Positions 1,919-45,113 of a stretch of 64,000 nucleotides of DNA are shown in pieces. The notes beneath the pieces are model-generated. The model was given only the letters and a program-made list of their open reading frames with translations, was not told the DNA's origin and made no database searches. A program made the translations under genes and the position numbers. The DNA lies in NCBI RefSeq assembly GCF_055900595.2, contig NZ_CM148325.1. One strand, given 5' to 3'. Position 1 is the stretch's first letter. Every line of letters starts with the position of its first letter.

Positions 1919-3304
1919 ATGGCTATTAATTCACCACTGAATATTGCTGCGCAACCCGGCAAAACCCGTCTGCGAAAATCACTGAAATTGTGGCAGGTGG
2001 TGATGATGGGTCTGGCCTATCTCACGCCGATGACTGTGTTCGATACCTTTGGCATTGTTTCCGGCATTAGCGACGGTCACGTTCCGGCGTCCTATTTGCT
2101 GGCGCTGGCGGGTGTGCTGTTTACCGCGATCAGCTACGGCAAACTGGTTCGCCAGTTTCCGGAGGCCGGTTCGGCCTATACCTACGCGCAAAAGTCGATT
2201 AACCCGCACGTCGGATTTATGGTCGGCTGGTCATCGCTGCTGGATTATCTCTTTTTGCCGATGATCAACGTTTTGTTGGCGAAAATCTATCTCTCCGCCC
2301 TCTTCCCGGAAGTGCCGCCGTGGGTGTGGGTGGTAACCTTCGTCGCCATTTTAACCGCCGCGAATCTGAAGAGCGTCAACCTGGTGGCTAACTTCAATAC
2401 CCTGTTTGTGCTGGTGCAGATTTCCATCATGTTGGTGTTTATCTTCCTGGTGGTTCAGGGGCTGCATAAAGGAGAAGGCGTTGGCACCGTCTGGTCGCTT
2501 CAGCCGTTTATCAGCGAGAACGCACATCTGATCCCGATTATTACCGGGGCGACGATTGTCTGTTTCTCGTTCCTCGGTTTCGATGCGGTGACCACGCTTT
2601 CGGAAGAGACGCCGGACGCCGCACGCGTGATCCCGAAAGCCATCTTCCTGACGGCGGTATACGGCGGCATTATCTTTATCGCGGCGTCGTTCTTTATGCA
2701 GCGGTTCTTCCCGGATATCAGCCGCTTTAAAGATCCGGACGCCGCACTGCCGGAAATCGCACTGTACGTTGGCGGCAAGTTGTTCCAGTCGATTTTCCTC
2801 TGCACGACGTTTGTGAACACGTTAGCGTCTGGCCTGGCGTCACATGCCAGCGTGTCGCGTCTGCTGTATGTGATGGGGCGCGACAATGTGTTTCCGGAAC
2901 GCGTGTTTGGCTATGTGCACCCGAAATGGCGGACTCCGGCACTGAATGTCATTATGGTCGGGATTGTCGCGTTGTCAGCGCTGTTCTTTGATTTAGTCAC
3001 CGCGACAGCATTGATTAACTTCGGTGCTCTGGTGGCGTTTACCTTCGTTAACCTGTCGGTGTTTAATCATTTCTGGCGGCGTAAAGGAATGAATAAAAGC
3101 TGGAAGGATCACTTCCACTATTTGCTGATGCCGCTGGTTGGCGCGCTGACGGTGGGTGTGCTGTGGGTTAACCTCGAGTCAACGTCACTGACACTCGGTC
3201 TGGTATGGGCTTCATTAGGCGGCGCATATTTGTGGTATCTGATCCGCCGCTATCGCAAAGTGCCGTTGTATGATGGTGACAGAACGCCGGTGAGCGAAAC
3301 GTAA
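1919..3304 (+). CDS. puuP: putrescine importer, APC-family amino acid permease
   Basis: ORF 1865..3304 trimmed to ATG at 1919 ([15 protein letters not shown]...), 461 aa, polytopic membrane protein; follows puuA. Confidence 0.88.
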
Positions 3305-3995: not shown

Positions 3996-5639
3996 ATGCG
4001 CCAGGTATTATCGTCTCTTTTGGTGATTGCTGGACTTGTGAGTGGTCAGGCAATCGCCGCGCCTGAATCCCCCCCGCATGCTGATATCCGCGACAGCGGT
4101 TTTGTCTATTGCGTCAGCGGGCAAGTCAACACCTTTAACCCATCCAAAGCGAGCAGTGGGTTAATTGTCGATACCCTTGCCGCCCAGTTTTATGATCGAC
4201 TCCTGGATGTCGATCCCTATACCTATCGCCTGATGCCGGAACTTGCCGAAAGCTGGGAAGTGCTCGACAACGGCGCGACCTATCGCTTCCACCTGCGTCG
4301 CGATGTTCCGTTTCAAAAAACCGACTGGTTTACTCCCACTCGTAAAATGAATGCCGACGATGTGGTGTTTACCTTCCAGCGAATTTTTGACCGTAACAAC
4401 CCGTGGCATAACGTCAACGGCAGCAACTTTCCCTACTTCGACAGCCTGCAATTTGCCGATAACGTTAAAAGCGTCCGCAAACTGGATAATCATACCGTTG
4501 AGTTCCGACTCGCCCAGCCAGATGCTTCTTTTTTGTGGCACCTGGCGACCCATTATGCATCGGTCATGTCGGCAGAATATGCCCAGAAGTTAGAGAAAGA
4601 AGATCGCCAGGAACAACTCGACCGTCAGCCGGTCGGCACTGGACCGTATCAGTTATCGGAATACCGCGCCGGGCAATTTATTCGCCTACAACGTCATGAT
4701 GACTTCTGGCGCGGCAAACCGTTAATGCCGCAGGTGGTGGTGGATTTAGGCTCCGGCGGCACCGGACGTCTTTCGAAACTTCTGACAGGTGAATGCGACG
4801 TTCTGGCCTGGCCTGCTGCCAGTCAGCTATCCATTTTGCGTGACGACCCACGCTTGCGTTTAACGCTGCGCCCGGGGATGAATGTCGCCTATCTGGCATT
4901 TAACACTGCTAAACCGCCGCTAAATAATCCCGCTGTCCGCCATGCGCTGGCACTGGCGATCAATAACCAGCGTCTGATGCAATCCATCTATTATGGTACG
5001 GCTGAAACGGCAGCCTCTATTTTACCGCGCGCCTCGTGGGCCTATGACAACGAGGCTAAAATTACTGAATACAATCCGGCGAAATCGCGCGAACAGTTGA
5101 AGGCGTTGGGGCTGGAAAACTTAACGCTGAAACTGTGGGTGCCAACACGTTCGCAGGCGTGGAACCCCAGTCCACTGAAAACCGCCGAACTGATTCAGGC
5201 GGATATGGCGCAGGTTGGCGTAAAAGTGGTGATTGTGCCGGTAGAAGGTCGTTTTCAGGAGGCGCGGTTGATGGATATGAGCCATGATCTGACGTTATCC
5301 GGTTGGGCGACAGACAGTAACGATCCGGACAGTTTCTTTCGTCCGCTACTGAGCTGCGCAGCAATACATTCCCAGACCAACCTCGCCCACTGGTGCGATC
5401 CGAAATTCGACAGCGTGTTGCGTAAGGCGCTCTCCTCGCAGCAGCTAGCGGCGCGTATTGAAGCCTATGACGAAGCGCAAAGTATTCTGGCGCAGGAATT
5501 GCCCATTTTGCCGCTGGCGTCGTCATTGCGCTTGCAAGCCTACCGTTACGATATCAAAGGGCTGGTTCTTAGCCCGTTTGGTAACGCCTCCTTTGCTGGT
5601 GTGTATCGCGAGAAACAGGATGAGGTGAAAAAACCATGA
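3996..5639 (+). CDS. sapA: peptide ABC transporter periplasmic binding protein
   Basis: 547-aa ORF with signal peptide and family-5 solute-binding protein translation; first gene of a five-gene operon. Confidence 0.92.
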
Positions 5640-7478: not shown

Positions 7479-8470
7479 TGCCATTACTCGATATTCGTAA
7501 CCTGACCATTGAATTTAAAACCGGTGATGAGTGGGTTAAAGCCGTCGACCGCGTAAGTATGACCTTAACCGAAGGTGAAATCCGCGGTCTTGTTGGCGAA
7601 TCCGGTTCCGGCAAAAGTTTGATTGCAAAAGCAATTTGTGGGGTGAATAAAGATAACTGGCGTGTTACTGCTGACCGTATGCGTTTTGATGATATCGATT
7701 TGCTGCGTCTCTCCGCACGCGAACGGCGCAAGCTGGTTGGTCACAACGTGTCGATGATTTTCCAGGAACCGCAGTCGTGTCTTGACCCTTCAGAACGTGT
7801 GGGTCGCCAGTTGATGCAAAACATCCCAGCCTGGACGTATAAAGGCCGTTGGTGGCAGCGTTTTGGCTGGCGCAAACGCCGTGCCATTGAACTACTGCAC
7901 CGTGTGGGGATTAAAGATCACAAAGATGCGATGCGCAGTTTTCCCTATGAGTTGACCGAAGGTGAATGTCAGAAAGTGATGATAGCCATTGCACTGGCGA
8001 ATCAACCGCGTCTGCTGATTGCTGACGAACCGACAAACTCAATGGAGCCAACAACCCAGGCGCAAATCTTTCGCCTGCTGACGCGTCTCAACCAAAACAG
8101 CAATACCACTATTTTGCTTATCAGCCATGACTTACAAATGCTTAGCCGATGGGCGGATAAAATTAACGTGCTTTACTGCGGTCAAACGGTGGAAACCGCG
8201 CCGAGTAAGGAGTTGGTGACAATGCCACATCATCCCTATACCCAGGCGCTGATCCGCGCGATACCAGACTTCGGCAGCGCGATGCCGCATAAAAGTCGCC
8301 TCAATACGCTGCCCGGCGCTATCCCACTGCTGGAACAGTTACCGATTGGGTGTCGTCTGGGGCCGCGTTGCCCGTATGCACAACGAGAATGCATTGTGAC
8401 GCCACGTTTGACGGGGGCGAAAAATCATCTCTATGCCTGTCACTTCCCGCTGAACATGGAGAAAGAGTGA
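7478..8470 (+). CDS. sapD: peptide ABC transporter ATP-binding protein
   Basis: 330 aa; Walker [12 protein letters not shown] signature region. Confidence 0.92.
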
Positions 8471-8471
8471 G

Positions 8472-9278
8472 ATGATCGAAACGCTGCTTGAAGTGCGTAA
8501 TTTAAGTAAAACGTTCCGTTATCGGACCGGCTGGTTTCGTCGTCAGACCGTAGAAGCGGTAAAACCTTTGAGCTTTACGCTACGTGAAGGCCAGACACTG
8601 GCGATCATTGGCGAGAATGGTTCTGGTAAATCCACGCTGGCAAAAATGCTGGCGGGAATGATAGAACCTACCAGCGGCGAGTTATTGATTGACGATCATC
8701 CGCTGCATTTTGGCGATTATTCCTTCCGCAGTCAGCGTATTCGCATGATTTTTCAGGATCCTTCGACCTCGTTGAATCCCCGTCAACGTATCTCGCAAAT
8801 TCTGGATTTTCCACTGCGTCTGAACACCGATCTGGAACCTGAACAGCGTCGCAAACAGATTATTGAAACGATGCGGATGGTTGGGCTGCTACCGGATCAC
8901 GTCAGTTACTATCCGCATATGTTAGCACCCGGGCAAAAACAGCGTCTGGGTCTGGCGCGCGCGCTGATATTGCGCCCAAAAGTCATTATTGCCGATGAAG
9001 CCCTCGCCTCACTGGATATGTCGATGCGTTCGCAGTTGATTAATCTGATGCTGGAGTTACAGGAAAAACAGGGCATTTCGTATATTTATGTTACCCAGCA
9101 TATTGGGATGATGAAGCACATTAGCGACCAGGTACTGGTGATGCATCAGGGCGAGGTTGTCGAGCGAGGTAGTACTGCGGATGTGCTCGCCTCTCCGCTG
9201 CACGACCTCACTAAACGACTGATTGCCGGTCATTTTGGCGAGGCATTGACGGCGGATGCGTGGCGTAAGGACCGTTAG
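8472..9278 (+). CDS. sapF: peptide ABC transporter ATP-binding protein
   Basis: 268 aa; Walker A GENGSGKST. Confidence 0.92.
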   Translation: MIETLLEVRNLSKTFRYRTGWFRRQTVEAVKPLSFTLREGQTLAIIGENGSGKSTLAKMLAGMIEPTSGELLIDDHPLHFGDYSFRSQRIRMIFQDPSTSLNPRQRISQILDFPLRLNTDLEPEQRRKQIIETMRMVGLLPDHVSYYPHMLAPGQKQRLGLARALILRPKVIIADEALASLDMSMRSQLINLMLELQEKQGISYIYVTQHIGMMKHISDQVLVMHQGEVVERGSTADVLASPLHDLTKRLIAGHFGEALTADAWRKDR

Positions 9279-9285
9279 TGTTTTG

Positions 9286-9318
9286 CACCTCATCCTGACA
9301 GGGCCCCCCTCAGGATGA
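9286..9318. terminator. bidirectional hairpin between convergent sapF and MFS gene
   Basis: cacctcatcctga / tcaggatgaggtg 13-bp inverted repeat around a cagggcccccc loop. Confidence 0.6.
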
Positions 9319-9326
9319 GGTGTTCA

Positions 9327-10490
9327 TTACTTTTGATTGTCGATTCTGGTGAGAGCAACCAGCAATGCCAGCGTATAACACACCGTAATTGCCAGACTCA
9401 TTTTTAACAGTGTTTCTCCGCCAATTCCCGACAATGGCGCGGCTATACCGCCGAAGACAAACATGCTCATCCCCATCAACGCAGACGCCGTTCCAGATTC
9501 CTGCGTCCCTACTGCACTCATAGCCTCTGCCCCGCCAACAGTGCCGATGCCGCTACAAAATGCGATGGTGAAAAATAATGCCACCAGTGCCGGAATGGGC
9601 AATTGTACCCATGCGCATAAGACCGTGAGCAATGCACACAAAATTGCCGCTATCAGGCCACCTCGCAACAATGTCATCGCGTTAATCCGTCGCGCCAGGC
9701 GCGAGAAGATCCATGAAGCAATGATAAGTCCGATGCCGTTAAGGCCAAACACCAGGCTAAATTGCATTGGACTAAAGCCAAATTCCTTCTGCAACACGAA
9801 CGACGAAGAGCCGATATACGCAAACAAACCGGCCAGCATAAAACTTTGAATCAGGCAAAAGCGCATAAAAAGGCGGTTCTGCACCACGCTTCGTCCGGTT
9901 AATAGCAATGATGAGCCCCTTTTATTTTCTGGCAAGGTCTCATTAATAAATAACAGGCAGCCCAGCAACAGTACGGTGCTAATTTCAGCCATTACCCAGA
10001 ATAAAGTGCGCCAGTCAAAAGTGCTAACAATGTACCCGCCCAGCACTGGCGACAACACCGGTGCCAGGCCATTCACCGTCATTAACAGCGCAAAAAACTG
10101 GGTCAACGTTACTCCCTGATATTTGTCACGAGCAATAGAACGAGAGAGCACCGAACCACCCGCCCCCGCGATCCCTTGAATAAAACGCCAGACCACCAGC
10201 CAGTAAATATTGTTCGTTGTCGCGCACAAAATGGAAGAAACAATAAACAATAGCAACGACAAGATTAACGGACGTTTACGCCCTATTTTGTCGCTCAGAG
10301 GGCCAAATAACAGTTGTCCGACGCCAAGACCGATCAGTGATGCAGTCAGGGTTAATTGCGTTATGGTCGTGGTTGCCGCCAGTTGCTCAGACATCTCCGG
10401 CAAAGCCGGCAAATAAAGATCGGTACACATCGGGCCGATACCGGCTAAAAGACCAAGAATCAATGCCCATGAAAGAGAGACTCTAGCCAT
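9327..10490 (-). CDS. MFS transporter, Bcr/CflA-like drug efflux family
   Basis: 387-aa polytopic protein with MFS motifs (GPLSDKIGRKRP); last gene of the efflux operon, 8 bp after the OMF gene. Confidence 0.75.
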   Translation of the reverse strand: MARVSLSWALILGLLAGIGPMCTDLYLPALPEMSEQLAATTTITQLTLTASLIGLGVGQLLFGPLSDKIGRKRPLILSLLLFIVSSILCATTNNIYWLVVWRFIQGIAGAGGSVLSRSIARDKYQGVTLTQFFALLMTVNGLAPVLSPVLGGYIVSTFDWRTLFWVMAEISTVLLLGCLLFINETLPENKRGSSLLLTGRSVVQNRLFMRFCLIQSFMLAGLFAYIGSSSFVLQKEFGFSPMQFSLVFGLNGIGLIIASWIFSRLARRINAMTLLRGGLIAAILCALLTVLCAWVQLPIPALVALFFTIAFCSGIGTVGGAEAMSAVGTQESGTASALMGMSMFVFGGIAAPLSGIGGETLLKMSLAITVCYTLALLVALTRIDNQK

Positions 10491-10498
10491 ATTATTCC

Positions 10499-11872
10499 TT
10501 ACTTGAGTGATGACATGCCGCCGCCCAGCGACTGCCAGAGCGTGATTCGGTTTGTAAAATCAGTCAGTTGCAGTGCCAGCAGCTCCTGCTGTGCGCTCCA
10601 CAAGCTGCGCTGCGCCGTCAACACGGTCAGGTAATCACCAACACCCGCCTGATAGCGACGCAAGCCAACATCGACCGTTTGTTGCTCAGCTTTAACATAC
10701 TGGCGCTGTGCATCCAGTTGCTCTTCAAGCGTGGTCCGCCGCGCCAGTGCGTTAGCGACATCTTTAAATGCGCTCTGAACGGTTTTTTCATAGGTGGCAA
10801 TGAGCCCACGCTTTTGTGCTTCTGCGTAACGAAGCTGCGCCAGATTACTCCCGCCAGTGAACAGCGGTAATGTGACCGATGGCGCAAATGACCAGATCTG
10901 CATTCCGTGGCTGAACAACGACGACAATGCGTCACTGCCCACACCGGCACTGGCAGTCAGCGAAATCGTCGGGAAAAAGTTAGCCCGCGCCGCGCCAATA
11001 TCTGCATTGGCGCTCTTCAAATTATGTTCCGCTTCCTGGATATCCGGGCGACGCAGCAGAACATCAGATGATACTCCCGCAGGAACCAGACTTATCATTT
11101 GTTCCGGCAGGCTTTCCAGTGTTCCCGGTAGCAGATTTTCCGCAAGCGTTGTACCTGCCAGTAAGTTCAGCGCATTTTTATCCTGCATCACTTGTGTCTG
11201 ATAGCTGGCAACGCTGGCGCGCGCTTGCTGATAAACACTCATCGCCTCACTGACATCTGTCGCTGCCGCCGTGCCAACCTGTTGCTGGCGCTGGATAATT
11301 TTCAATGAGTTTTCTGCACTGGCCATCGTTTCTTTTGCCAGGGCCAGGTTGCTGTTATCAGCCGCCAGTGTCAGCCAGGCGGTGCTGATTTCAGCAATCA
11401 GCGTTAAACGAGTGTTCTGGGCTGTAAATTCACTGGCAAGCCAGGTTTCCCGCGCCGCCCGAGATAAACTCTGATTACGACCAAACAGATCTAACGTATA
11501 ACTGGACACCGTGCCGTCAGCCTCGGCAGTTGTTCCCGTACCATTCGCCAGCGAACGACTGCGAGTCGAACTTAAGGCCGCATTCACCGTCGGAAATAAC
11601 GACGCATTAGTTTGCCCATAGAGCGCCCGTGCTGAGTCAATATCAGCAATCGCTTTTTGCACATCGCGGTTACTGTTCAGTGCAATGGTTACTACCTGCT
11701 GCAATCGGGGATCGTGGATCACCTGCTGCCAGTCATGGCTGATTGCCTTCCCCTGGCCCTGTGCTCCCGGCAAGGTCGCCGGGATTGGGGATTCAGGCGT
11801 ACTGTAGTGAGGATCGAGCGAGACACATCCCGCACTCAACAACACCAGAAAAATAAGAGAACGACGCAACAT
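10499..11872 (-). CDS. RND efflux outer-membrane factor lipoprotein (NodT/OprM family)
   Basis: 457 aa; signal peptide with lipobox LSAGC; OprM/TolC-like alpha/beta repeat translation. Confidence 0.8.
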   Translation of the reverse strand: MLRRSLIFLVLLSAGCVSLDPHYSTPESPIPATLPGAQGQGKAISHDWQQVIHDPRLQQVVTIALNSNRDVQKAIADIDSARALYGQTNASLFPTVNAALSSTRSRSLANGTGTTAEADGTVSSYTLDLFGRNQSLSRAARETWLASEFTAQNTRLTLIAEISTAWLTLAADNSNLALAKETMASAENSLKIIQRQQQVGTAAATDVSEAMSVYQQARASVASYQTQVMQDKNALNLLAGTTLAENLLPGTLESLPEQMISLVPAGVSSDVLLRRPDIQEAEHNLKSANADIGAARANFFPTISLTASAGVGSDALSSLFSHGMQIWSFAPSVTLPLFTGGSNLAQLRYAEAQKRGLIATYEKTVQSAFKDVANALARRTTLEEQLDAQRQYVKAEQQTVDVGLRRYQAGVGDYLTVLTAQRSLWSAQQELLALQLTDFTNRITLWQSLGGGMSSLK

Positions 11873-11875
11873 AAC

Positions 11876-14800
11876 TTACTCCTGACGGCGCGGTTTACCG
11901 GCAAACAAACGTTTCACCAGTACAAAAAACAGAGGAACGAAGAAAATGGCCAGTAATGTAGCGGTCAGCGTGCCGCCAATAATGCCCGTACCAATGGCGA
12001 TGCGGCTGTTCGCCCCTGCGCCGGTTGCTATCGCCAGCGGCATTACCCCCGCAATAAACGCCAGCGAGGTCATGATGATTGGGCGTAAACGAGTCTGCGC
12101 CGCGCGTAATGCCGCACGACTCAAGGAATAGCCCTCTGCAACCGCCGCTTCAGCAAATTCCACAATCAGAATGGCGTTTTTCGACGACAAGCCGATAGTA
12201 GTTAATAGCGCTACCTGGAAGTAAACGTCGTTGTTTAAATCACGCATCCAGGCCGCCAGCGCCGCGCCAAGAAGCCCCAGAGGGATCACCAGAATGACCG
12301 AGAACGGGACTGACCAGCTTTCGTACAGTGCTGCAAGGCAGAGGAAAACCACCAGAATAGAAACTGCATACAGACTTAATGCCTGACCGCTGGCCAGTTT
12401 CTCCTGCAATGACAAACCACTCCAGGCCCATGTTGTTCCCGCAGGAAGACTGTTTGCCAGTTCCTCCATTTTTGTCATTGCATCGCCGGAACTAAAGCCA
12501 GTCGCGTTTTCGCCCTGAATTTCATAGGCTGCCGAGCCGTTGTAGCGCACCAGTCTTTCCGGTCCATACAGCCAGCGGGTGGTCGCAAAAGCAGAGAATG
12601 GTGTCATGGCGTTATCGCTACCGCGCACAAACCATTTACCTAAGTCTGACGGCGCGGAACGAAATTCGCTGTCGCCCTGAATGTAGACTTTTTTCACACG
12701 ACCACGGTCAATAAAGTCATTCACATAAGTACCGCCCCACGCACTGGACAGGGTGTCGGTGACATCATTCAAACTCAACCCTAATGACACCGCTTTATTG
12801 CTATCAATATCTACCTGCAATTGCGGCATTTGTGGCAAATCATTGGCGCGTACAGAATGTAACTCCGGACTTTGATTCGCTTTTTCTATCAACTGATTAC
12901 GCATTTGCAGCAGTGTTTCACGATCGGTTCCACCGTTAGCTAACAATTCAAACGTAAAACCATTGCTTTGGCCCAGCCCATCAACGGCTGGCGGCGTCAT
13001 CGCAAATACCGTGGCATCACGAATTGTGCCCAGCTCTTTGGTAGCCCGTAGGGCGATAGCCTGGGCGGTGTTTTCTGCCCCTTTACGTTGAGACCAGTTT
13101 TTCAACGAAACAAACGCCATCCCGGTGTTCTGTCCGCTGCCGCTAAAACTGAAACCATCAACGGTAAAGATGACATCGGTATTTGCTTTCTCGTTAATCA
13201 GGAACCAGTCAACAATCTGGCGATTCACTTCTGCTGTACGGGCAGCGGTCGCCCCGGCCGGCAGCGTGTACTGCACCATGATTTCGCCCTGGTCTTCAGT
13301 GGGTAAGAAACTGCCCGGCAGTTTCCACATCATCAGGGCCATTCCACCACCCAGCACGACATAAAGCCCCATCGTTCGGGCTGCACGGCGCAGGACATAA
13401 ATTACGCCTCGCTGATATTTATCTTCAGTACGGCGGTAAAAGCGGTTAAATGCGCCGAAAAAGCCTTTTTTATGTGGCGGAACATGCTGGAGGACGGAAC
13501 CGCACAGGGCGGGAGTCAAGGTCAATGCCACCACCACGGAAAGCAGCATTGCGGAGATGATGGTGATGGAGAACTGACGATAAATTACGCCCGTAGATCC
13601 CCCAAAGAAGGCCATCGGCAGGAATACGGCTGACAACACCAGCGCAATGGCAACCAGTGCGCCAGAAATCTCGCCCATTGATTTTTCCGTGGCTTCACGC
13701 GCGGGCAACCCTTCGTCACGCATAATGCGTTCGACGTTCTCCACCACCACAATGGCATCGTCCACCAGCAAGCCGATCGCCAGCACCATTGCAAACAACG
13801 TCAGGGTATTAATCGAATAGCCAAACAACGCAAGAACGCCGAATGTGCCCAGCAAAACGACGGGGACAGCTAACGCCGGAATCAGTGTGGCACGCAGGTT
13901 TTGCAGGAATAAATACATCACGCAAACCACCAATACGATGGCTTCAAACAGCGTCTGAATTACGTCCTCTACGGAGATTTTAATAAATTCAGTGCTGTCT
14001 TTCGGGTATGCGATGTCGTATCCCTGCGGCATGTTCCGCTGGAATTCGGCAATCTTATCCTTGACCAGCGTCGCCGTATTCAGCGCATTCGCACCGGGCG
14101 AAAGCATTACAGCAACCCCGGCAGACGGGTGACCGTTAAGTTTGCCGATAGCGGTATAATCTTCACTGCCCATCTCAACGCGAGCCACATCTTTTATACG
14201 AACAACTGCGCCGTCTGACTGGCTTTTCACGATAATATTTTTGAACTGATCCACCGTCTGCAAGCGAGACTGCGCACGTACCGTTGCGGTCAGTTGCTGA
14301 GTATCCGGTGAAGGCAATGCCCCTATTTTCCCGGCAGTAACCTGCACGTTTTGCGCTTCAATAGCACTTTGCACGTCTGAAGGCATCAGCGAGTAAGACG
14401 CCAGTTTGGCCGGGTCGAGCCAGATGCGCATAGCGTATTCCGCGCCAAAGACTTGCAGACTCCCCACACCTTCAACACGCGCCAGGGGGTCCTGAACGTT
14501 ACTGACCAGCCAGTCGGCGATATCCGAACTGGAGGCTTTGTCAGTGGTGTCATACACGGCAGCAATCAGCAAAAAGTTGCTTTGTGATTTCTCCACCGTA
14601 ACACCTGTTTGCTGCACTTCGCTGGGTAGGCGCGACTCCGCCTGCTGAATTTTATTCTGCACCTGAACCTGTGCAGTATCTGGATCGGTACCTTGTTCAA
14701 AGGTCACATTAATACTGACCGAACCATCAGAGCTACTGGTTGAGCTGAAATAGAGTAAATTATCAAGCCCAGTGAGTTGTTGCTCGATAACCTGAGTCAC

Positions 14801-14983
14801 GCTGTTCTCCAGCGTTTCGGCAGAAGCACCAGTATAAGTGGCTGAAATTTTAATGGTCGGCGGTGCAACGTCAGGATATTGCGCGACGGGTAATGTGCGA
14901 ATAGCCAGAATCCCCGCCAACATAATCAAAATGGCGATAACCCAGGCAAAGACCGGGCGGCGAACAAAAAAGCGCGAAAACAT
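11876..14983 (-). CDS. RND multidrug efflux permease (AcrB/MexB-like)
   Basis: 1035 aa; N-terminus MFSRFFVRRPVFAWVIAILIMLAG and long stretches closely resemble AcrB as I recall it. Confidence 0.88.
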   Translation of the reverse strand: MFSRFFVRRPVFAWVIAILIMLAGILAIRTLPVAQYPDVAPPTIKISATYTGASAETLENSVTQVIEQQLTGLDNLLYFSSTSSSDGSVSINVTFEQGTDPDTAQVQVQNKIQQAESRLPSEVQQTGVTVEKSQSNFLLIAAVYDTTDKASSSDIADWLVSNVQDPLARVEGVGSLQVFGAEYAMRIWLDPAKLASYSLMPSDVQSAIEAQNVQVTAGKIGALPSPDTQQLTATVRAQSRLQTVDQFKNIIVKSQSDGAVVRIKDVARVEMGSEDYTAIGKLNGHPSAGVAVMLSPGANALNTATLVKDKIAEFQRNMPQGYDIAYPKDSTEFIKISVEDVIQTLFEAIVLVVCVMYLFLQNLRATLIPALAVPVVLLGTFGVLALFGYSINTLTLFAMVLAIGLLVDDAIVVVENVERIMRDEGLPAREATEKSMGEISGALVAIALVLSAVFLPMAFFGGSTGVIYRQFSITIISAMLLSVVVALTLTPALCGSVLQHVPPHKKGFFGAFNRFYRRTEDKYQRGVIYVLRRAARTMGLYVVLGGGMALMMWKLPGSFLPTEDQGEIMVQYTLPAGATAARTAEVNRQIVDWFLINEKANTDVIFTVDGFSFSGSGQNTGMAFVSLKNWSQRKGAENTAQAIALRATKELGTIRDATVFAMTPPAVDGLGQSNGFTFELLANGGTDRETLLQMRNQLIEKANQSPELHSVRANDLPQMPQLQVDIDSNKAVSLGLSLNDVTDTLSSAWGGTYVNDFIDRGRVKKVYIQGDSEFRSAPSDLGKWFVRGSDNAMTPFSAFATTRWLYGPERLVRYNGSAAYEIQGENATGFSSGDAMTKMEELANSLPAGTTWAWSGLSLQEKLASGQALSLYAVSILVVFLCLAALYESWSVPFSVILVIPLGLLGAALAAWMRDLNNDVYFQVALLTTIGLSSKNAILIVEFAEAAVAEGYSLSRAALRAAQTRLRPIIMTSLAFIAGVMPLAIATGAGANSRIAIGTGIIGGTLTATLLAIFFVPLFFVLVKRLFAGKPRRQE

Positions 14984-16104
14984 CAGGCATTGCCTCCATT
15001 AGCCTGAACTTCAACAGCCTTGACGGTCTGCCCTGAAGTGACTTTGGCAGAACCTTCAACAATCAGTCGGTCGCCGTTGTGCAGGCCGTTCAGCACCAGC
15101 CATTTATCACCATACGTTTCTCCCGTTTCGAGCGTTCGCTGCTCTACTTTATTGTCTTTATTCACCACCAGCGCAGTTGCATTGCCTTTAGCATCGCGCG
15201 TGACGCCCTGTTGAGGCGCGAGAATAGCGTTTTCCATCACGCCTTCATCGACACGAGCGCGAACAAACATTCCCGGTAATAACTGCTGTTGTGGATTGGG
15301 GAAAATTGCCCGTAATGTCACCGAACCGGTAGACTCATCCACCGCGACTTCGGTGAGTTCCAGACGCCCTTTTTCGCTGTAGGTTGTGCCATCTTCCAGA
15401 ATAAGTGAGACGCTCATGGTGTCACTGTTGGTCGCCAGTGACTGTTTACGCAGACGTAATAAATCGACACTGGAGCGAGTGAGGTCGACATACATTGTAT
15501 CCAGACCACGAATAGTCGTTAACGCTGTATCTTGCGACGCGGTCACCAGTGCGCCAGGGGTTACCGACGAAATGCCAATACGCCCCGAAATCGGCGCAGT
15601 GACCGTGGTCCAGTCAAGATTAATGCGCGCAGTTTCCAGTGCGGCTTTTTTCGCCTCTACACTGGCTTTATCTTGTGCACAGGTAGACTGAGCATCATCA
15701 GCATCCTGTTGTGAAACACCGTTCTCTTTCACCAGTCGGGCATAACGCTGCGCTTTCTGGCAATCGGCTTTTACCAGTGCCTGTGCTTGTTGTAATGCTG
15801 CCCGAGCTTCATTCCATGCAGCCTGATAACTGGCCGCATCAATCTGGTAGAGCGGCTGTCCAGCCTTGACCAGATCACCTTCCTTAAATAAGCGTTTCTG
15901 GATAATTCCCCCAACCTGCGGACGTACTTCGGCACTGAGCGCAGCACTGGTGCGTCCGGTTAATTCACTGACTACCGAGACCGGTTGAGATTTGACTGTA
16001 ACAACGCCGACTTCTGTTTCTGACGGGGATGAATTGTTACTTTGCGTATTATCACAACCAGATAAGAGCAGCATTGCCACTACAGATGTTGCTATATACT
16101 TCAT
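14983..16104 (-). CDS. RND efflux membrane fusion (periplasmic adaptor) lipoprotein
   Basis: ORF 14983..16137 trimmed to ATG at 16104 (MKYIATSVVAMLLLSGC lipobox) with GGAG RBS 8 nt upstream; AcrA-like translation. Confidence 0.8.
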   Translation of the reverse strand: MKYIATSVVAMLLLSGCDNTQSNNSSPSETEVGVVTVKSQPVSVVSELTGRTSAALSAEVRPQVGGIIQKRLFKEGDLVKAGQPLYQIDAASYQAAWNEARAALQQAQALVKADCQKAQRYARLVKENGVSQQDADDAQSTCAQDKASVEAKKAALETARINLDWTTVTAPISGRIGISSVTPGALVTASQDTALTTIRGLDTMYVDLTRSSVDLLRLRKQSLATNSDTMSVSLILEDGTTYSEKGRLELTEVAVDESTGSVTLRAIFPNPQQQLLPGMFVRARVDEGVMENAILAPQQGVTRDAKGNATALVVNKDNKVEQRTLETGETYGDKWLVLNGLHNGDRLIVEGSAKVTSGQTVKAVEVQANGGNA

Positions 16105-16131
16105 TATTTTCTCCAGGGTGAGAAATACCCT

Positions 16132-16151
16132 CCTCATTAAAATTAATGAGG
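16132..16151. promoter_or_regulatory. candidate operator palindrome upstream of the efflux operon
   Basis: cctcattaa-aa-ttaatgagg, perfect 9-bp inverted-repeat arms, about 30 bp upstream of the MFP start codon. Confidence 0.45.
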
Positions 16152-16252
16152 ATATGTCAGGGATATTCAGTTATAACGAACCCGCATCGCAAAATGAATT
16201 TCGCAATGAAATAAGGGGGATTAATATCCCCCGCTATTGGTTAATTCTGTTC

Positions 16253-16819
16253 TTATTTATTTATCAACATACTAACAATATCCTGATATATTTCCTGCAG
16301 ATGTTGTGGATCGCTTTTTTGCGGTGTTAAACGACGATAAACTGTACCTTCCATCATGGTAGCAAACACTTCAACGCAGCAACGAATGTGCTCGTCGCTA
16401 AGATGGGGATGCATTCTTTTCATATGTGCACAACCGTTAGCGAACATTCTGGCGTCAGCTTCTTCAAGCATTGCCATAACCCGCGGGTTGCGTGTGGCTT
16501 CTGCAGCCACTTCCAGCATCAGCGCGTCGTCGTCCTCATTTAAGGATTTACGCAAGGCAAGGACTTCCGGGAAGTGATCGGTACGCGCGTCAATGTCCAT
16601 TTGGGCAATACGAAAGTCGATGATACGGCGAACCATCTCTTCAATAATGGCGTCTTTGTTGGCGAAGTAACGATATATCTGACCCACGCTAAGCTGAGCT
16701 TCACTGGCAATTTGCGACATACTGGCGGCATGAAATCCGCAGCGACGAAAACACCGACGGGCGGCGTTAATGATTTCATCCTGACGCTGTTTGTGGCGTA
16801 TCTCCAGCTTGCTGGTCAT
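16253..16819 (-). CDS. TetR/AcrR-family transcriptional regulator
   Basis: ORF 16253..16840 trimmed to ATG at 16819 with AGGAGA RBS; N-terminal HTH typical of the TetR family. Confidence 0.8.
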   Translation of the reverse strand: MTSKLEIRHKQRQDEIINAARRCFRRCGFHAASMSQIASEAQLSVGQIYRYFANKDAIIEEMVRRIIDFRIAQMDIDARTDHFPEVLALRKSLNEDDDALMLEVAAEATRNPRVMAMLEEADARMFANGCAHMKRMHPHLSDEHIRCCVEVFATMMEGTVYRRLTPQKSDPQHLQEIYQDIVSMLINK

Positions 16820-16854
16820 TTCTGTCTCCTGGCCTATCACTTAGTGAGAATGAT

Positions 16855-16872
16855 CATTCTCATTTTTGCTAA
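16855..16872. promoter_or_regulatory. perfect 18-bp palindrome upstream of the tetR-family gene
   Basis: tgagaatgatcattctca is its own reverse complement; lies 36 bp upstream of the tetR start. Confidence 0.45.
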
Positions 16873-17295
16873 TTATACGTTTCTCCAAAGTAATGGAAAG
16901 TATTTTTATTTATTCATGATGCATATTCTGATAATGAAGAGATTGTGGAGATTCTGTGAAGATAGTTGACAATATTAAGTTGGAGTCAATTCATCAGAAA
17001 GACAGCGACTTATTGTCGCCAGTTCTGTTTTCATCATCAAACTTATCGGAGCTAATACGAATAGTTTCAAAGTCAGATTCTATAAGATATTTCCCCAACC
17101 TCCCCCTTGCAGGCGTCAGGAGTAGATAACGCAAAATGCTCTGTACCGCAGCTTCTCTCCGCTACAGAAAGCGCAACTATAGCCACCCACAGCCAGGTTG
17201 ATTATAATAACCGTTTATCTGTTCGTACTGTTTACTAAAACGACGAATCGCCTGATTTTCAGGCACAACAAGCATCAACAATAAGGATTAAAGCT

Positions 17296-18084
17296 ATGGG
17301 TTTTCTTTCCGGTAAGCGCATTCTGGTAACCGGTGTTGCCAGCAAACTGTCCATCGCCTACGGTATCGCTCAGGCGATGCACCGCGAAGGAGCTGAACTG
17401 GCATTCACCTACCAGAACGACAAACTGAAAGGCCGCGTAGAAGAATTTGCCGCTCAATTGGGTTCTGACATCGTTCTGCAGTGCGATGTTGCAGAAGATG
17501 CCAGCATCGACACCATGTTCGCTGAACTGGGTAAAGTTTGGCCGAAATTTGACGGCTTTGTACATTCCATTGGTTTTGCACCGGGCGATCAGCTGGATGG
17601 TGACTATGTTAACGCCGTTACTCGTGAAGGCTTCAAAATTGCCCACGACATCAGCTCCTACAGCTTCGTTGCAATGGCAAAAGCTTGCCGCTCCATGCTG
17701 AATCCGGGTTCTGCCCTGCTGACCCTTTCCTACCTTGGCGCTGAGCGCGCTATCCCGAACTACAACGTTATGGGTCTGGCAAAAGCGTCTCTGGAAGCGA
17801 ACGTGCGCTATATGGCGAACGCGATGGGTCCGGAAGGTGTGCGTGTTAACGCCATCTCTGCTGGTCCGATCCGTACTCTGGCGGCTTCCGGTATCAAAGA
17901 CTTCCGCAAAATGCTGGCTCATTGCGAAGCCGTTACCCCGATTCGCCGTACCGTTACTATTGAAGATGTGGGTAACTCTGCGGCATTCCTGTGCTCCGAT
18001 CTCTCTGCCGGTATCTCCGGTGAAGTGGTCCACGTTGACGGCGGTTTCAGCATCGCTGCAATGAACGAACTCGAACTGAAATAA
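17296..18084 (+). CDS. fabI: enoyl-ACP reductase (NADH)
   Basis: 262-aa translation [40 protein letters not shown]... is FabI. Confidence 0.95.
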
Positions 18085-18227
18085 TCGTTCTGTTGGTCAA
18101 GATGGGCGGCGTTCTGCCGCCCGTTATCTCTGTTATACCTTTCTGATATTTGTTATCGCCGATCCGTCTTTCTCCCCTTTCCGCCTTGCGTCAGGATAAC
18201 GATTTCCTTTACGACCAAGGAGCGCCC

Positions 18228-40565: not shown

Positions 40566-40570
40566 GGGAA

Positions 40571-40601
40571 AGCACCTCAAAAGTTCGCCTCTTGAGGTGC
40601 T
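40571..40601. terminator. bidirectional hairpin between btuR and the three-gene islet
   Basis: agcacctcaa / ttgaggtgct 10-bp inverted repeat followed by aatttta. Confidence 0.6.
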
Positions 40602-40621
40602 AATTTTAGATACTGAATGGC

Positions 40622-40930
40622 TTAATTAGCCACGGCAAAATTAAGAAGAGCTTGAATTTTATTCAAGTGTGCGGGATATTCCATGTCATTATCCGCATTG
40701 ACGTCTTCAATAAACAGTATTAATTCAGTGATCAAATCATTAGCATCTTCATAACTAATACCAGTCAGTTCTGGTGACGTTTGCGAGCCATAATTAATTG
40801 TCAGATTATTCATTACCGACAAAACCAGAATAAAATATTTGTGACATATATCGCAAGTTGTTCGGTTTCCTAAGGCATAGTACAGCATATTGAGCAATGC
40901 CAGTATTCGTCGATTTTGCACATCGTTCAT
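40622..40930 (-). CDS. hypothetical small protein (102 aa), third gene of a low-GC islet operon
   Basis: Intact ORF 9 bp downstream of the preceding gene; no recognisable family; AT-rich codon usage unlike the flanks. Confidence 0.5.
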   Translation of the reverse strand: MNDVQNRRILALLNMLYYALGNRTTCDICHKYFILVLSVMNNLTINYGSQTSPELTGISYEDANDLITELILFIEDVNADNDMEYPAHLNKIQALLNFAVAN

Positions 40931-40939
40931 AATGACCTC

Positions 40940-41296
40940 CTATAACATAACTCCGCTGGCAATAAGAAGTTTTGCCAGCTCCTCTGACGCCTGTAGACCA
41001 CTAATAAATTGAGAACGCAGGATCTCATTCCTACGCTCTAAATCCGCTTTAGAAAGAGATTTATTAGAGTATAAATCTTGTAGATGATTTCCTTTATCCA
41101 TGAAGGCATTAATAGCTTGTATTGCTGGAGCCGCCGGATCAGATGAACGCAATCTGCTTTCATTAAGATTAATTACTGCACTCAAAAATTCCTGTCTACT
41201 CTTTAATGTTTTAAATTCTATGTTTTTAGTATTTGCTCGGGCCTTATTATAGTAATAAAAATTATTGCTGATGTTCGCAAAATTATTCCAATCCAT
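40940..41296 (-). CDS. hypothetical small protein (118 aa), second gene of the islet operon
   Basis: Intact ORF 17 bp downstream of the lipoprotein gene; hydrophilic; no recognisable family. Confidence 0.5.
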   Translation of the reverse strand: MDWNNFANISNNFYYYNKARANTKNIEFKTLKSRQEFLSAVINLNESRLRSSDPAAPAIQAINAFMDKGNHLQDLYSNKSLSKADLERRNEILRSQFISGLQASEELAKLLIASGVML

Positions 41297-41313
41297 TTGC
41301 TGCTGTTTCGTTG

Positions 41314-41961
41314 CTATATCATCGAGTAAATCTTGTAAATTTCTTTGAAGTCGTGGCCAGTACTACCTACCGTTTTACCAACATTTTCTGATTTAATCTT
41401 CTCTTTATATAATCCATTGAAATATTGAACTAAATCTTTAACAGCTACAGCTGACTTAGTCAGTTCTTCACCTTCTGAAAGGCCAAGTAGTTTTTGGGCG
41501 TTGTTTGCATGATCGAGCGCCTGATTAAGTAATATAATTTGTTTACTATCGTCAACATCCATATCCACCGTCAACAACTCCACATAGGAGCTCATACTGT
41601 TAACGACCTCAAGTGAAGCCAGTAGCTTTTGTTTTTCTGTGGTTGCCAATTGAACTTTAGTAACGTCTTTATACGATGTTTTGTCCCCTTTCTCTGATTG
41701 CATACATAAGGACTCTTTATTAGTATTATTTTCCATAATCGTTTCATAATCAGGTCGCAATGCACAATCCGGATTAGCCGCATAAAAATTAACAAGGAAG
41801 TTTTCACGAGAAGCATAGTATTGTTTAAAGAAACTTGCATTCGCCGCAACCGCCTTGTTACCCGCAGTAATAACAGTTTCAGCTTGTTCATTTTTCAATG
41901 TTTCAGTTGCACAACCTGAAAGCATTAACAGCGATAGAAATAATCCACTATATCTAATCAT
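41314..41961 (-). CDS. hypothetical lipoprotein (215 aa), first gene of the islet operon
   Basis: Signal peptide with lipobox LSGC (MIRYSGLFLSLLMLSGCATE); AGGTGG RBS upstream of the ATG; low GC. Confidence 0.55.
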   Translation of the reverse strand: MIRYSGLFLSLLMLSGCATETLKNEQAETVITAGNKAVAANASFFKQYYASRENFLVNFYAANPDCALRPDYETIMENNTNKESLCMQSEKGDKTSYKDVTKVQLATTEKQKLLASLEVVNSMSSYVELLTVDMDVDDSKQIILLNQALDHANNAQKLLGLSEGEELTKSAVAVKDLVQYFNGLYKEKIKSENVGKTVGSTGHDFKEIYKIYSMI

Positions 41962-42089
41962 AACCCACCTCTTGACGTTGAGTTTATCTCAGATAATTAA
42001 ATAGTAATGTGGCTATTCCCTGGCATTATTCATAAGCAAGTATGAAATTAAATTAAAATACTGCGACTATTTATCATGCTTCAAATGAA

Positions 42090-42109
42090 GAAAAGGCCCC
42101 GCAGGGCCT
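42090..42109 (-). terminator. rho-independent terminator after rluB
   Basis: minus-strand hairpin aggccctgcggggcct followed by a T-rich tract. Confidence 0.55.
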
Positions 42110-42130
42110 TTATTTAATACTTAACTTAAA

Positions 42131-43218: not shown

Positions 43219-45113
43219 TTACCAGCCACCACCGCCTCCGCCACCCGCACCGCCGCCAGCACCACCACCGGAATAGCTTCGCCCCAACAAACTGGTATTG
43301 GCCCCCAGACTCAGGTGCATCTGTAATGAAAACAAAACGCCACTACGGGCAATTTCCGGGGCGTGAACAGCCGCTGTGAGTGACGGCGTGATACGTGCTG
43401 CCCATTCTTTTCCAAGGTTTGCCGAGACTGCCCAACCTAGCAACGCGTAATCCAGTTTCCGTGTTTCCCCTTTCCGCCGACGCCCACTGTGTGTTGCTGC
43501 CTCTTTACGCGCAAGATAGTTAACGATAGCTTCACCGTGGGCATAACGTTGCTGCCCAGTTTGGGTAAACTTTGGCAGAAAAATATACCCCATGCCAGTG
43601 AGATAACCGGTCAGGAAAACAGCGCTAAAATAACCCGCAGGCATATACCAGTAAAAGAATACATCTCCGACATTGATGTAGAGAGAGTAAAAAGCCACAC
43701 CTGAACAAATCAGTGGTAAAAACAAAGTGATGATTACACGATTAACGCAAGGCTTGTCATCATCGCGTGCAAACAAAAGATCAAGGGAACAAAATAAAAA
43801 AGGAAGAAGCCAGCAGATCATAATAAACATATCGCCTACCAGACTCATTCCTGCCCAGCCTACGGGACTCAGGTTACCGTAGAGAATGACCGCCAATATT
43901 GCCATTCCGCCCCATTGCAAAAACGCATCAGGTCGGTAAAACGAAGACTTTTTACGCGGCAGATAAAATTTCTGCATCCGTAAAAATGCCCTGCGTAAGA
44001 CTCTGTTACGCCCCCCGTAAGAACGACCTTGTCGCCTTTACGAAATAACGTTTCCAGTAATATCTGCTCTGCGGGCAGTAATACCGCATTATTCCTGGTC
44101 GCACCTTCATTAACACGGATCAGGGTTTGCTGATTTTTGTCATACTGATCTTCCAGATGAATTTTTCCTTTCACAATCAGATTTACGATATCGGCACAAA
44201 AACCTTTATCGTCGTAAACCAGCTTCGCATCGAGACGTAACATTCCGGGCGTGTAATCTGGCGGAATGACATCGGTTTCAATCACATCTACCGGCGTAAA
44301 TTGCGGCCTGCGCTTCCAGAGATATAACCATCCACACGCCAGGAACAGACACGGAAACCAAATTAACAACGATGACGTAGAGGGTAAAAGAAGATGGCTG
44401 AAAATATTCGTCGTTTGTGGTGCCGGGGCATTACCAAGTAAAGCGTGAGGCCAGCGGTAGAGGACCGTGAAATCTTCACGATAAAACGGATCGCGGGATT
44501 CAATTCTTCCGTCCTCAAGGATGCGGCCATTTCGATATGTGTCGCCCTCTTCTCCGGTAAAGAGATCGATTTCGCTAAATGGATTACCCGCAATTTTAGA
44601 GAACTGGAGAGAAAATCGGGTCTTATAAATTTCAAACGGCCAGTTGTTACCGGTCACGTTCCAGATTAGCAGATCAGAATCCCCCTCACGCAGGAAAGCA
44701 TTTTTAACCTGATAATGAATTTGATAATGATAGTCGCCCTGAGGCAAGAAACGTTGTTTATCGCCCACGACAATGCTCATTAACCCGATATGCCAGTCAA
44801 GATGCCAGGGTTCAGGAACGCCGTCACGGGTGACGCCAACAATACGATAGTTCAGCACTGCTGCGTCCCCATCAGGCTGCATCCAGAGTCGTGGTAAATC
44901 ACGATAAAATCCGTGCTTAATCTGCTGATTTCGCGCCTGAAAATGAATGTTCTCTTTGATGTCGAGCACCCCATCCAGTTGCAGGGTGGCTTCAACATCA
45001 AAGAGCGAGATCCCTTCTTCATAAAAAGGGATCTCCGTGTTTTTCGCATAACTCAACGAAGAGAAAAAAAGCCCAACTATCAACAGCAAAATGCAGCGAA
45101 ACTTCCCTGCCAT
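43219..45113 (-). pseudogene. yciQ: yciQ-like membrane protein gene, frameshifted (or sequencing error)
   Basis: Two overlapping minus-strand ORFs (414 aa, 43869..45113, and 252 aa, 43219..43977) span 1895 nt, one base short of the 1896 nt needed for the 631-aa K-12 product I recall; a C6 homopolymer at 44011-44016 lies just upstream of the shift interval (43869..43977). Confidence 0.6.

Follow-up and report, generated by a model that had tools for sequence, protein, structure and literature searches.

The window analysed here is a stretch of 64,000 nucleotides from contig NZ_CM148325.1 (assembly GCF_055900595.2). Between sapF and fabI it carries five genes that we identify as the chromosomal eefRABCD operon of Escherichia coli, encoding a TetR-family regulator (EefR), a periplasmic adaptor (EefA), a resistance-nodulation-division (RND) permease (EefB), an outer-membrane factor (OMF; EefC) and a major facilitator superfamily (MFS) transporter (EefD). 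We consider it highly probable (about 0.93) that this is that operon, and that it is ancestral at the site and was replaced in some lineages by a segment carrying ycjD. The operon is already published and is not a new locus: it was described by Pugh et al. (Microb Genom 2026, PMC12817139; preprint 2024) and by Shen et al. (Virulence 2025, PMC12482432). What is added here concerns its ancestry at the level of the genus, a single origin for the ycjD segment as the more economical account, the probably chromosomal nature of the copies recorded as plasmids, an operator found throughout the Enterobacterales, a structured leader between eefR and eefA, and a conserved pairing of EefR with EefD.

Identity of the operon

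Reading of the open reading frames (ORFs) in the window gives five intact, co-directional minus-strand genes within 9327-16819, in the order TetR, adaptor, RND, OMF, MFS (Table 1). This matches the description of Pugh et al., who report a five-gene eefRABCD operon that always lies between fabI and sapF (PMC12817139). Every residue named in the two papers was found at exactly the stated position in the window proteins. In a spread sample drawn from the 2,037 complete E. coli genomes with the operon, the full-length copies listed are 98-100% identical to it in nucleotide sequence, and they include ST131 and the O157:H7-lineage strain ATCC 43889. The eefRABCD operons of E. coli ATCC 25922, SMS-3-5 and ATCC 35218 have the same genes, order, strand and site, with an EefR of 188 and an EefB of 1035 residues, and the differences between the window and the published E. 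coli operon are allelic only.

The region 8400-18100 is 100% identical to the dog isolate NZ_CP098223.1, whose annotation by the NCBI Prokaryotic Genome Annotation Pipeline (PGAP) provides the start of eefA and the 188-residue EefR used here. The longest ORF for eefA extends to 16137, with an in-frame ATG at that position; this upstream start is not kept outside Escherichia, and the PGAP start at 16104 was retained. The longest ORF for eefR begins at 16840 with GTG. Spacing within the operon is tight, with a gap of 8 bp between eefC and eefD, a gap of 3 bp between eefB and eefC, and a 1-nt overlap of eefA with eefB (TGATG); the gap between eefR and eefA is 148 bp. An earlier, sequence-only reading of this DNA had described five intact co-directional genes in this order, as the ORFs and the NCBIfam profiles bear out, and it gave the same figures for the permease (1035 residues) and for the MFS gene (8 bp after the OMF gene).

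All five products were compared with NCBIfam profiles at curated cut-offs, and each scored above the cut-off of its expected family. EefB scored 1553.7 against TIGR00915 (HAE-1 RND, cut-off 940) and 1501.3 against NF000282 (cut-off 1250). It fell below the AcrB (1379, cut-off 2150) and AcrD (1411, cut-off 1854) equivalogs and so belongs to neither; among solved structures AcrB and MexB are equally close to it, and Pugh et al. give an identity of about 57% to both (PMC12817139). EefA scored 276 against TIGR01730 (cut-off 95), with MexA and AcrA as its best equivalog models, both below their cut-offs, and AcrA and MexA as its closest solved structures. EefC scored 373.8 against TIGR01845 (NodT/OprM, cut-off 210) and only 56 against the TolC equivalog (cut-off 495), and its closest solved structure is OprM. 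EefD scored 279 against TIGR00710 (Bcr/CflA subfamily, cut-off 200.9) and lies below the equivalog cut-offs of Bcr (225.6, cut-off 303), TcaB, EmrD and MdfA. Its closest solved structures are EmrD and MdfA, and its identity to Bcr is about 30% according to Shen et al. (PMC12482432). The closest solved structure to EefR is UidR, matched mainly over the N-terminal two-thirds.

The functional residues are also in place. EefB has the proton-relay residues D408, D409, K935 and T972, and R965 too. EefA has the lipobox LLSGC and the R120/L124/S131/D136 motif, while EefC has the lipobox LSAGC with C16, together with D206, G412, L415, T416, L418 and T419 as described by Pugh et al. (PMC12817139). EefR has V45 and R50, which are sites of derepressing mutations (PMC12482432). 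A check for truncated proteins or lost functional residues thus found full ORFs with the catalytic and lipobox residues kept.

Of the known systems that the sequence-only reading had put forward for comparison (EefABC, MexAB-OprM, TtgABC and the Bcr family), EefABC proved to be the right match. The Klebsiella (Enterobacter) aerogenes locus has orthologous eefR-eefA-eefB-eefC genes (EefA 75%, EefB 84% and EefR 59% identical) and a one-mismatch operator 24 bp upstream of eefR; its chromosomal neighbourhood is other than that in E. coli, and the contig ends within eefC. By the accounts given in PMC12482432 and PMC12817139, this is the original eef pump, and its silencing is attributed to H-NS. 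With MexAB-OprM and AcrAB-TolC the Eef system has in common the tripartite HAE-1 RND architecture and the proton-relay residues, although the Eef proteins fall below the cut-offs of all four AcrB, AcrD, AcrA and MexA equivalogs. It differs from both in its co-transcribed MFS gene. The OprM-type lipoprotein channel encoded within the operon is as in the Mex systems and unlike AcrAB, and the aspartate ring of TolC is missing from the EefC gate. The view that Escherichia borrows TolC for such pumps holds for those of the AcrB type and not generally. K-12 has OprM-family lipoproteins of its own, CusC and MdtP. Finally, EefD lies within the subfamily of Bcr/CflA-EmrD-MdfA (DHA1) exporters, yet forms a separate orthologous group that always adjoins eefR or eefC.

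Table 1. Features of the sapF-fabI region, with positions in the window.
Feature	Position	Strand	Remarks
eefD (MFS, Bcr/CflA-type)	9327-10490	-	387 aa
eefC (OMF, OprM-like lipoprotein)	10499-11872	-	457 aa
eefB (RND permease, HAE-1 AcrB/MexB type)	11876-14983	-	1035 aa
eefA (periplasmic adaptor lipoprotein)	14983-16104	-	373 aa from PGAP start
eefR (TetR family)	16253-16819	-	188 aa
eefR-eefA spacer	16105-16252	-	148 nt; three hairpins
Hairpin H1	16215-16232	-	right after eefR stop; G+C-rich, then U-rich run; flagged by terminator scan
Hairpin H2	16185-16208	-	two-sided change in E. albertii, by eye
Hairpin H3	16131-16152	-	compensatory changes
EefR operator	16845..16862		18-bp perfect palindrome TGAGAATGATCATTCTCA
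Putative eefR promoter	16872..16899	-	TTTCCA, 16-nt spacer, TATAAT
sapF/eefD intergenic hairpin	9286..9322		CACCTCATCCTGA, 11-nt loop, TCAGGATGAGGTG; read off sequence
sapF	8472-9278	+	flank
fabI	17296-18084	+	flank

Ancestry of the operon and the ycjD allele

In comparison with a K-12-type genome, homology stops at window position 9285 and resumes at 17173, which leaves an allele-specific segment of 7,887 bp (9286-17172). The span of 9286-17250 proposed from the sequence alone therefore has an exact start and an end about 80 bp too far to the right. The hairpin between the convergent sapF and eefD genes, probably a two-way terminator, has a stem sequence that is also found 3′ of sapF in K-12, with a different loop; because this stem is common to K-12, the left edge of the allele-specific DNA may instead lie at about 9322. 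In the K-12-type genome this site is taken up by 658 bp of unrelated sequence, in which lie ycjD, a gene of the DUF559 family, and a GC-rich repeat present in about four copies per genome. The statement of the sequence-only reading that K-12 has only ycjD between sapF and fabI was correct, and the eef gene set is absent from K-12 at this locus. We note that the ycjD segment (2387-3044 of the K-12-type locus) also contains a second, partial copy of the 3′ end of ycjD.

A blastn search at word size 7 found no eef remnants in the K-12 sapF-fabI segment: the stem of the sapF hairpin is the only shared sequence, and the best other match is 18 bp long (E = 2.1). We therefore regard the ycjD segment as a replacement rather than as the scar of a deletion. 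Pugh et al. report 'conserved operon fragments' at the K-12-type site (PMC12817139), a result not reproduced here.

A complete E. coli genome was counted as carrying the operon if at least 80% of the operon region was present. By this count the operon is found in 2,037 of 5,426 complete genomes (about 38%), and the ycjD segment in 3,377, so that between them they account for 5,414 of the 5,426. The site is essentially a two-allele locus. The suggestion that such a system is unusual for Escherichia is accordingly right as regards its absence from K-12 and wrong as regards its rarity. Pugh et al. found the operon in phylogroups B2, D, E, F and G, with ycjD instead in A, B1 and C, and proposed 'up to three independent losses' of eef (PMC12817139). 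The ycjD segments of three lineages (K-12, another, and one with a 12-nt-longer ycjD) agree in both of their junctions and in their internal repeats; the longer ycjD has been reported for ST69 and ST182 (PMC12817139). An identical unrelated insert of 658 bp is not expected from independent deletions. A single origin of the ycjD allele, followed either by spread through homologous recombination in the flanks or by persistence as an ancient polymorphism, would therefore be more economical. A simple flank-divergence test for import of ycjD by recombination, made without a genome phylogeny, had as its only signal a raised density of mismatches over the final 400 bp of sapF. We propose that a ycjD segment of single origin would have replaced the operon in phylogroups A, B1 and C as well as in a small number of other lineages.

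The gene order fabI-eefRABCD-sapF is also present in E. albertii, E. whittamii and two other divergent Escherichia genomes, as found in one EefD scan of species-representative genomes. Identity to E. albertii at third codon positions is 0.72-0.81 for four eef genes (eefB having been excluded on account of an indel) and 0.66-0.81 for sapD, sapF and fabI, while amino-acid identity is 0.94-0.97. High amino-acid identity combined with silent identity like that of the flanks indicates vertical descent under purifying selection, and the shared site with flank-like divergence in E. albertii and E. whittamii indicates that the operon was at this site before the Escherichia species split. The evidence at sapF-fabI thus favours ancestry of the operon in the genus Escherichia, and the K-12 state is a derived or alternative state. 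This agrees with the 'loss' view of Pugh et al. and not with their suggestion of lateral acquisition from Pseudomonas-like sources (PMC12817139).

The rival account is a recently acquired genomic island, in which a foreign efflux system, from a Pseudomonas-like or plasmid source for example, was added by horizontal transfer to some pathogenic E. coli; the sequence-only reading had used the word 'island', which is misleading here. In favour of acquisition, neither K-12 nor phylogroups A, B1 and C carry the operon, EefC resembles OprM and not TolC, and the neighbourhood of the cassette differs between genera. None of the usual marks of an acquired island (deviant composition, mobility genes or att repeats, absence from sister species) was found, however. 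The GC content of the operon is 0.51 against 0.50 for the window, and at third codon positions it is 0.47-0.56 in the eef genes and 0.51-0.56 in their neighbours, so that the comparison of composition with the flanks gave no sign of foreign DNA. No integrase, insertion sequence (IS) element, tRNA or flanking direct repeat was found at the edges of the locus or in its annotation. EefB is 84-88% identical to its enterobacterial orthologues, and among solved structures MexB is no closer to it than AcrB. Together with the same site, order and flank-like silent divergence in E. albertii and E. whittamii, these results make recent acquisition very improbable, and for the Escherichia lineage the idea is already largely refuted.

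Plasmid copies would be a further argument for horizontal transfer, and Shen et al. report them and warn of plasmid-borne spread (PMC12482432). The operon occurs in three E. coli 'plasmid' entries of PLSDB, one with a length of 4.9 Mb and two smaller ones (385 kb and 252 kb) to which no replicon type is assigned and which are classed as non-mobilizable. In the two smaller records, NZ_CP141085.1 and CP054253.1, the operon lies in its normal chromosomal neighbourhood, from pspA through sapABCDF on one side and from fabI-rnb to osmB on the other, with 16 kb of normal chromosomal neighbours on both sides, fabI and rnb included. The E. coli 'plasmid' copies are thus most likely mislabelled pieces of chromosome, to judge from this context, which weakens the published warning. 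We also considered an IncFIB record from E. cloacae as a case of plasmid carriage and rejected it, as it holds a 75%-identical eefRABC without eefD and not the E. coli operon.

Control region and distribution in the Enterobacterales

The best promoter match in the region agrees with the consensus at 10 of 12 positions and with the position of PeefR predicted by Shen et al. (PMC12482432), whose green fluorescent protein (GFP) reporter contained 316 bp upstream of eefR. Escherichia species share its -10 element CGTATAAT and its CTTTCCA element with Pseudocitrobacter and E. cloacae. The -10 element is followed, ahead of the eefR start codon, by TGAGAATGATCATTCTCA, an exact TGAGAA-N6-TTCTCA, for which 0.09 chance matches (with up to one mismatch) are expected in the whole window. 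Shen et al. showed repression of the eefR promoter by EefR itself, which binds the palindrome TGAGAACGATCATTCTCA upstream of the gene (PMC12482432). The window sequence is identical to the one bound in their gel shifts at 17 of 18 positions, with T rather than C at position 7 in the central spacer, and is a perfect palindrome.

The exact motif is found 21-25 bp upstream of eefR in nine further lineages and a variant with one or two mismatches in another six; in every lineage fetched, K. aerogenes included, eefR is preceded at a distance of 21-40 bp by the operator or such a variant. By this sequence comparison the EefR operator is conserved across the Enterobacterales. Control by EefR is therefore old and not specific to E. 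coli, whereas Shen et al. propose it as an E. coli-specific adaptation (PMC12482432). Within the eefR-eefA spacer, a one-mismatch match to the operator at 16119-16136 overlaps the third hairpin and is unlikely to be there by chance. As a second EefR site it is probably non-functional: single substitutions abolish binding in gel shifts, and a 148-bp fragment downstream of eefR, probably this spacer, failed to compete (PMC12482432).

The spacer itself is predicted to be strongly structured, with a minimum free energy of -45.7 kcal/mol compared with -31.3 for shuffled sequences (z = -3.7). Compensatory changes preserve two of its three hairpins, H1 and H3, across Pseudocitrobacter, Kluyvera, E. 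cloacae and Cronobacter, in a covariation set of eight sequences from four or five lineages. H1 looks like an intrinsic terminator, and the spacer may be an attenuator that lowers expression of the pump relative to the regulator, although this is suggestive only. A scan of 9200-17400 against Rfam at E ≤ 1 gave one sub-threshold chance match only, and neither PMC12817139 nor PMC12482432 mentions a terminator or hairpin in the spacer. In one divergent genome, that of Escherichia sp. MOD1-EC7003, about 125 bp are inserted immediately 3′ of the eefR stop codon (at about 4125-4250 of its locus).

EefR orthologues are 59-72% identical across the Enterobacterales, in genomic contexts that vary by genus. 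The full eefRABCD set is found in Phytobacter, one Salmonella strain, Kosakonia, Kluyvera and Pseudocitrobacter, and eefRABC without eefD in Cronobacter and E. cloacae; the K. aerogenes contig has eefRAB and ends after the start of eefC. In Erwinia and Pantoea (loci 9001-10772) eefR overlaps the gene for an EefD orthologue that is 48-49% identical to E. coli EefD, and there are no RND genes. In Pluralibacter (locus 9001-11026) eefR is followed by an EefD orthologue (68% identical) without eefABC, and the spacer between them still has 155 bp with homology to the Cronobacter eefR-eefA leader (76% identity, E = 3e-24). Because this leader has been retained, eefABC must have been deleted in Pluralibacter while eefR and eefD were kept. 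EefR thus stays paired with EefD even where eefABC is absent. As a general claim, that the two form an ancestral pair is weakened by the Pluralibacter arrangement, which is derived.

Function and natural substrate

Experimental evidence on expression comes mainly from Shen et al. (PMC12482432), working on a near-identical allele. Reverse transcription PCR across all gene junctions showed that the five eef genes are co-transcribed, as had been supposed for the MFS gene from its position. The operon is almost silent under laboratory conditions, deletion of eefR raised the eefA-D transcripts 27- to 83-fold, and EefR, studied with gel shifts and the GFP reporter, has a single genomic target. In an acrB-null host, cloned eefABC raised minimum inhibitory concentrations (MICs) 8- to 32-fold. 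In cells lacking AcrB, loss or inactivation of EefR increased resistance to sanguinarine, macrolides, lincosamides, chloramphenicol, tetracycline, fusidic acid and cationic dyes, and EefABC, and more weakly EefD, exported multiple drugs and dyes (PMC12482432). Ethidium efflux was also shown by Pugh et al. (PMC12817139). The expectation that the system could broaden drug efflux is thus confirmed for the derepressed operon in an acrB-null background.

In these near-identical alleles EefR, bound to the palindrome just downstream of its own promoter, keeps the five-gene unit almost silent, and on its loss or inactivation EefA, EefB and EefC are made together with the MFS pump EefD. We propose that the first three would assemble as a tripartite pump like AcrAB-TolC, with EefC as an OprM-type channel; EefD would move substrates from the cytoplasm to the periplasm, from where EefABC would carry them out of the cell.

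Several observations count against this account. Given the terminator-like hairpin between eefR and eefA, simple co-transcription may not fully describe how the operon is expressed. The serial transfer from EefD to EefABC has no support from MIC synergy (PMC12482432). Repression, co-transcription and efflux are known from the ATCC 35218 and ATCC 25922 alleles, not from that of the window. Pugh et al. saw no change in antibiotic MICs on deletion or expression of eefABC, only effects with ethidium and rhodamine, and call the pump 'not a drug transporter' (PMC12817139); on antibiotics as Eef substrates they and Shen et al. (PMC12482432) disagree. In the experiments of Pugh et al. eefABC was expressed from pET21a/24a in MG1655 without IPTG (PMC12817139). 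Expression in this set-up was probably very low. MG1655 has no T7 RNA polymerase. Since neither this polymerase nor IPTG was present with the pET21a/24a constructs, we give these negative MICs less weight.

Pugh et al. favour the alternative that the system is a dedicated exporter of a host-derived or endogenous metabolite (a bile component, a plant or dietary alkaloid, a signalling compound or a toxic intermediate), with drug efflux as a side activity seen on artificial overexpression (PMC12817139). This departs from the explanation preferred here solely in the natural substrate. It fits the unchanged antibiotic MICs after deletion of the pump in wild-type ATCC 25922 (PMC12817139), the strong conservation of the operon under purifying selection, its tight repression by a dedicated regulator with one genomic target, the retention of the EefR-operator-EefD unit even in plant-associated Erwinia and Pantoea, and the unusual gate residues of EefC. 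Against this, no natural substrate or inducer is on record, derepression confers broad multidrug resistance (PMC12482432), and the negative MIC results are weakened by masking by AcrB as well as by weak expression. We regard it as a tentative possibility, rather doubtful on present evidence. By contrast, that the operon is a decaying remnant without function, in the course of being lost as in phylogroups A, B1 and C and in Shigella dysenteriae, is already contradicted and extremely improbable. It is true that 62% of complete E. coli genomes have lost it or carry a replacement, that an IS element disrupts it in S. dysenteriae (PMC12817139), and that it is silent in the laboratory (PMC12482432); but its five ORFs are intact with their catalytic and lipobox residues, amino-acid identity to E. 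albertii is far above identity at silent sites, and the pump works when expressed (PMC12817139, PMC12482432).

A more speculative extension, which we think unlikely, is that the regulatory core is an old unit of EefR, operator and EefD, with the RND cassette placed inside it behind the conserved three-hairpin leader, and that EefD and EefABC act in series on one natural ligand that also releases EefR. It is suggested by the occurrence of the unit alone, with overlapping genes, in Erwinia and Pantoea, by its retention in Pluralibacter, and by the conservation of the operator in the Enterobacterales. On this proposal the leader could fix how much regulator is made relative to pump, or provide a second level of control by attenuation, and the ligand would possibly be a plant or dietary alkaloid or another host-derived compound.

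For the eefRABCD operon as preferred here, native to the site and under EefR control, the practical meaning is that K-12 under-represents the efflux repertoire of E. coli. A seventh RND pump is present in strains of phylogroups B2, D, E, F and G, ST131 and O157:H7 among them, and a single eefR mutation can switch it on and give multidrug resistance when AcrB is compromised. This route matters for strategies based on efflux inhibitors, a point already published.

Two other features of the window were noted. A second variable segment lies at about 40570-42130, between cobO and rluB, with minus-strand ORFs at 40622-40930, 40940-41296 and 41314-41961, corresponding to two hypothetical genes, of which one is interrupted by a frameshift; it is present in 860 of the 5,426 complete E. 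coli genomes and absent from K-12. The yciQ gene (DUF2207; 43219-45113, minus strand) is split into overlapping ORFs at 43219-43977 and 43869-45113, and in the near-identical genome NZ_CP098223.1 PGAP annotates it as a pseudogene with a frameshift.

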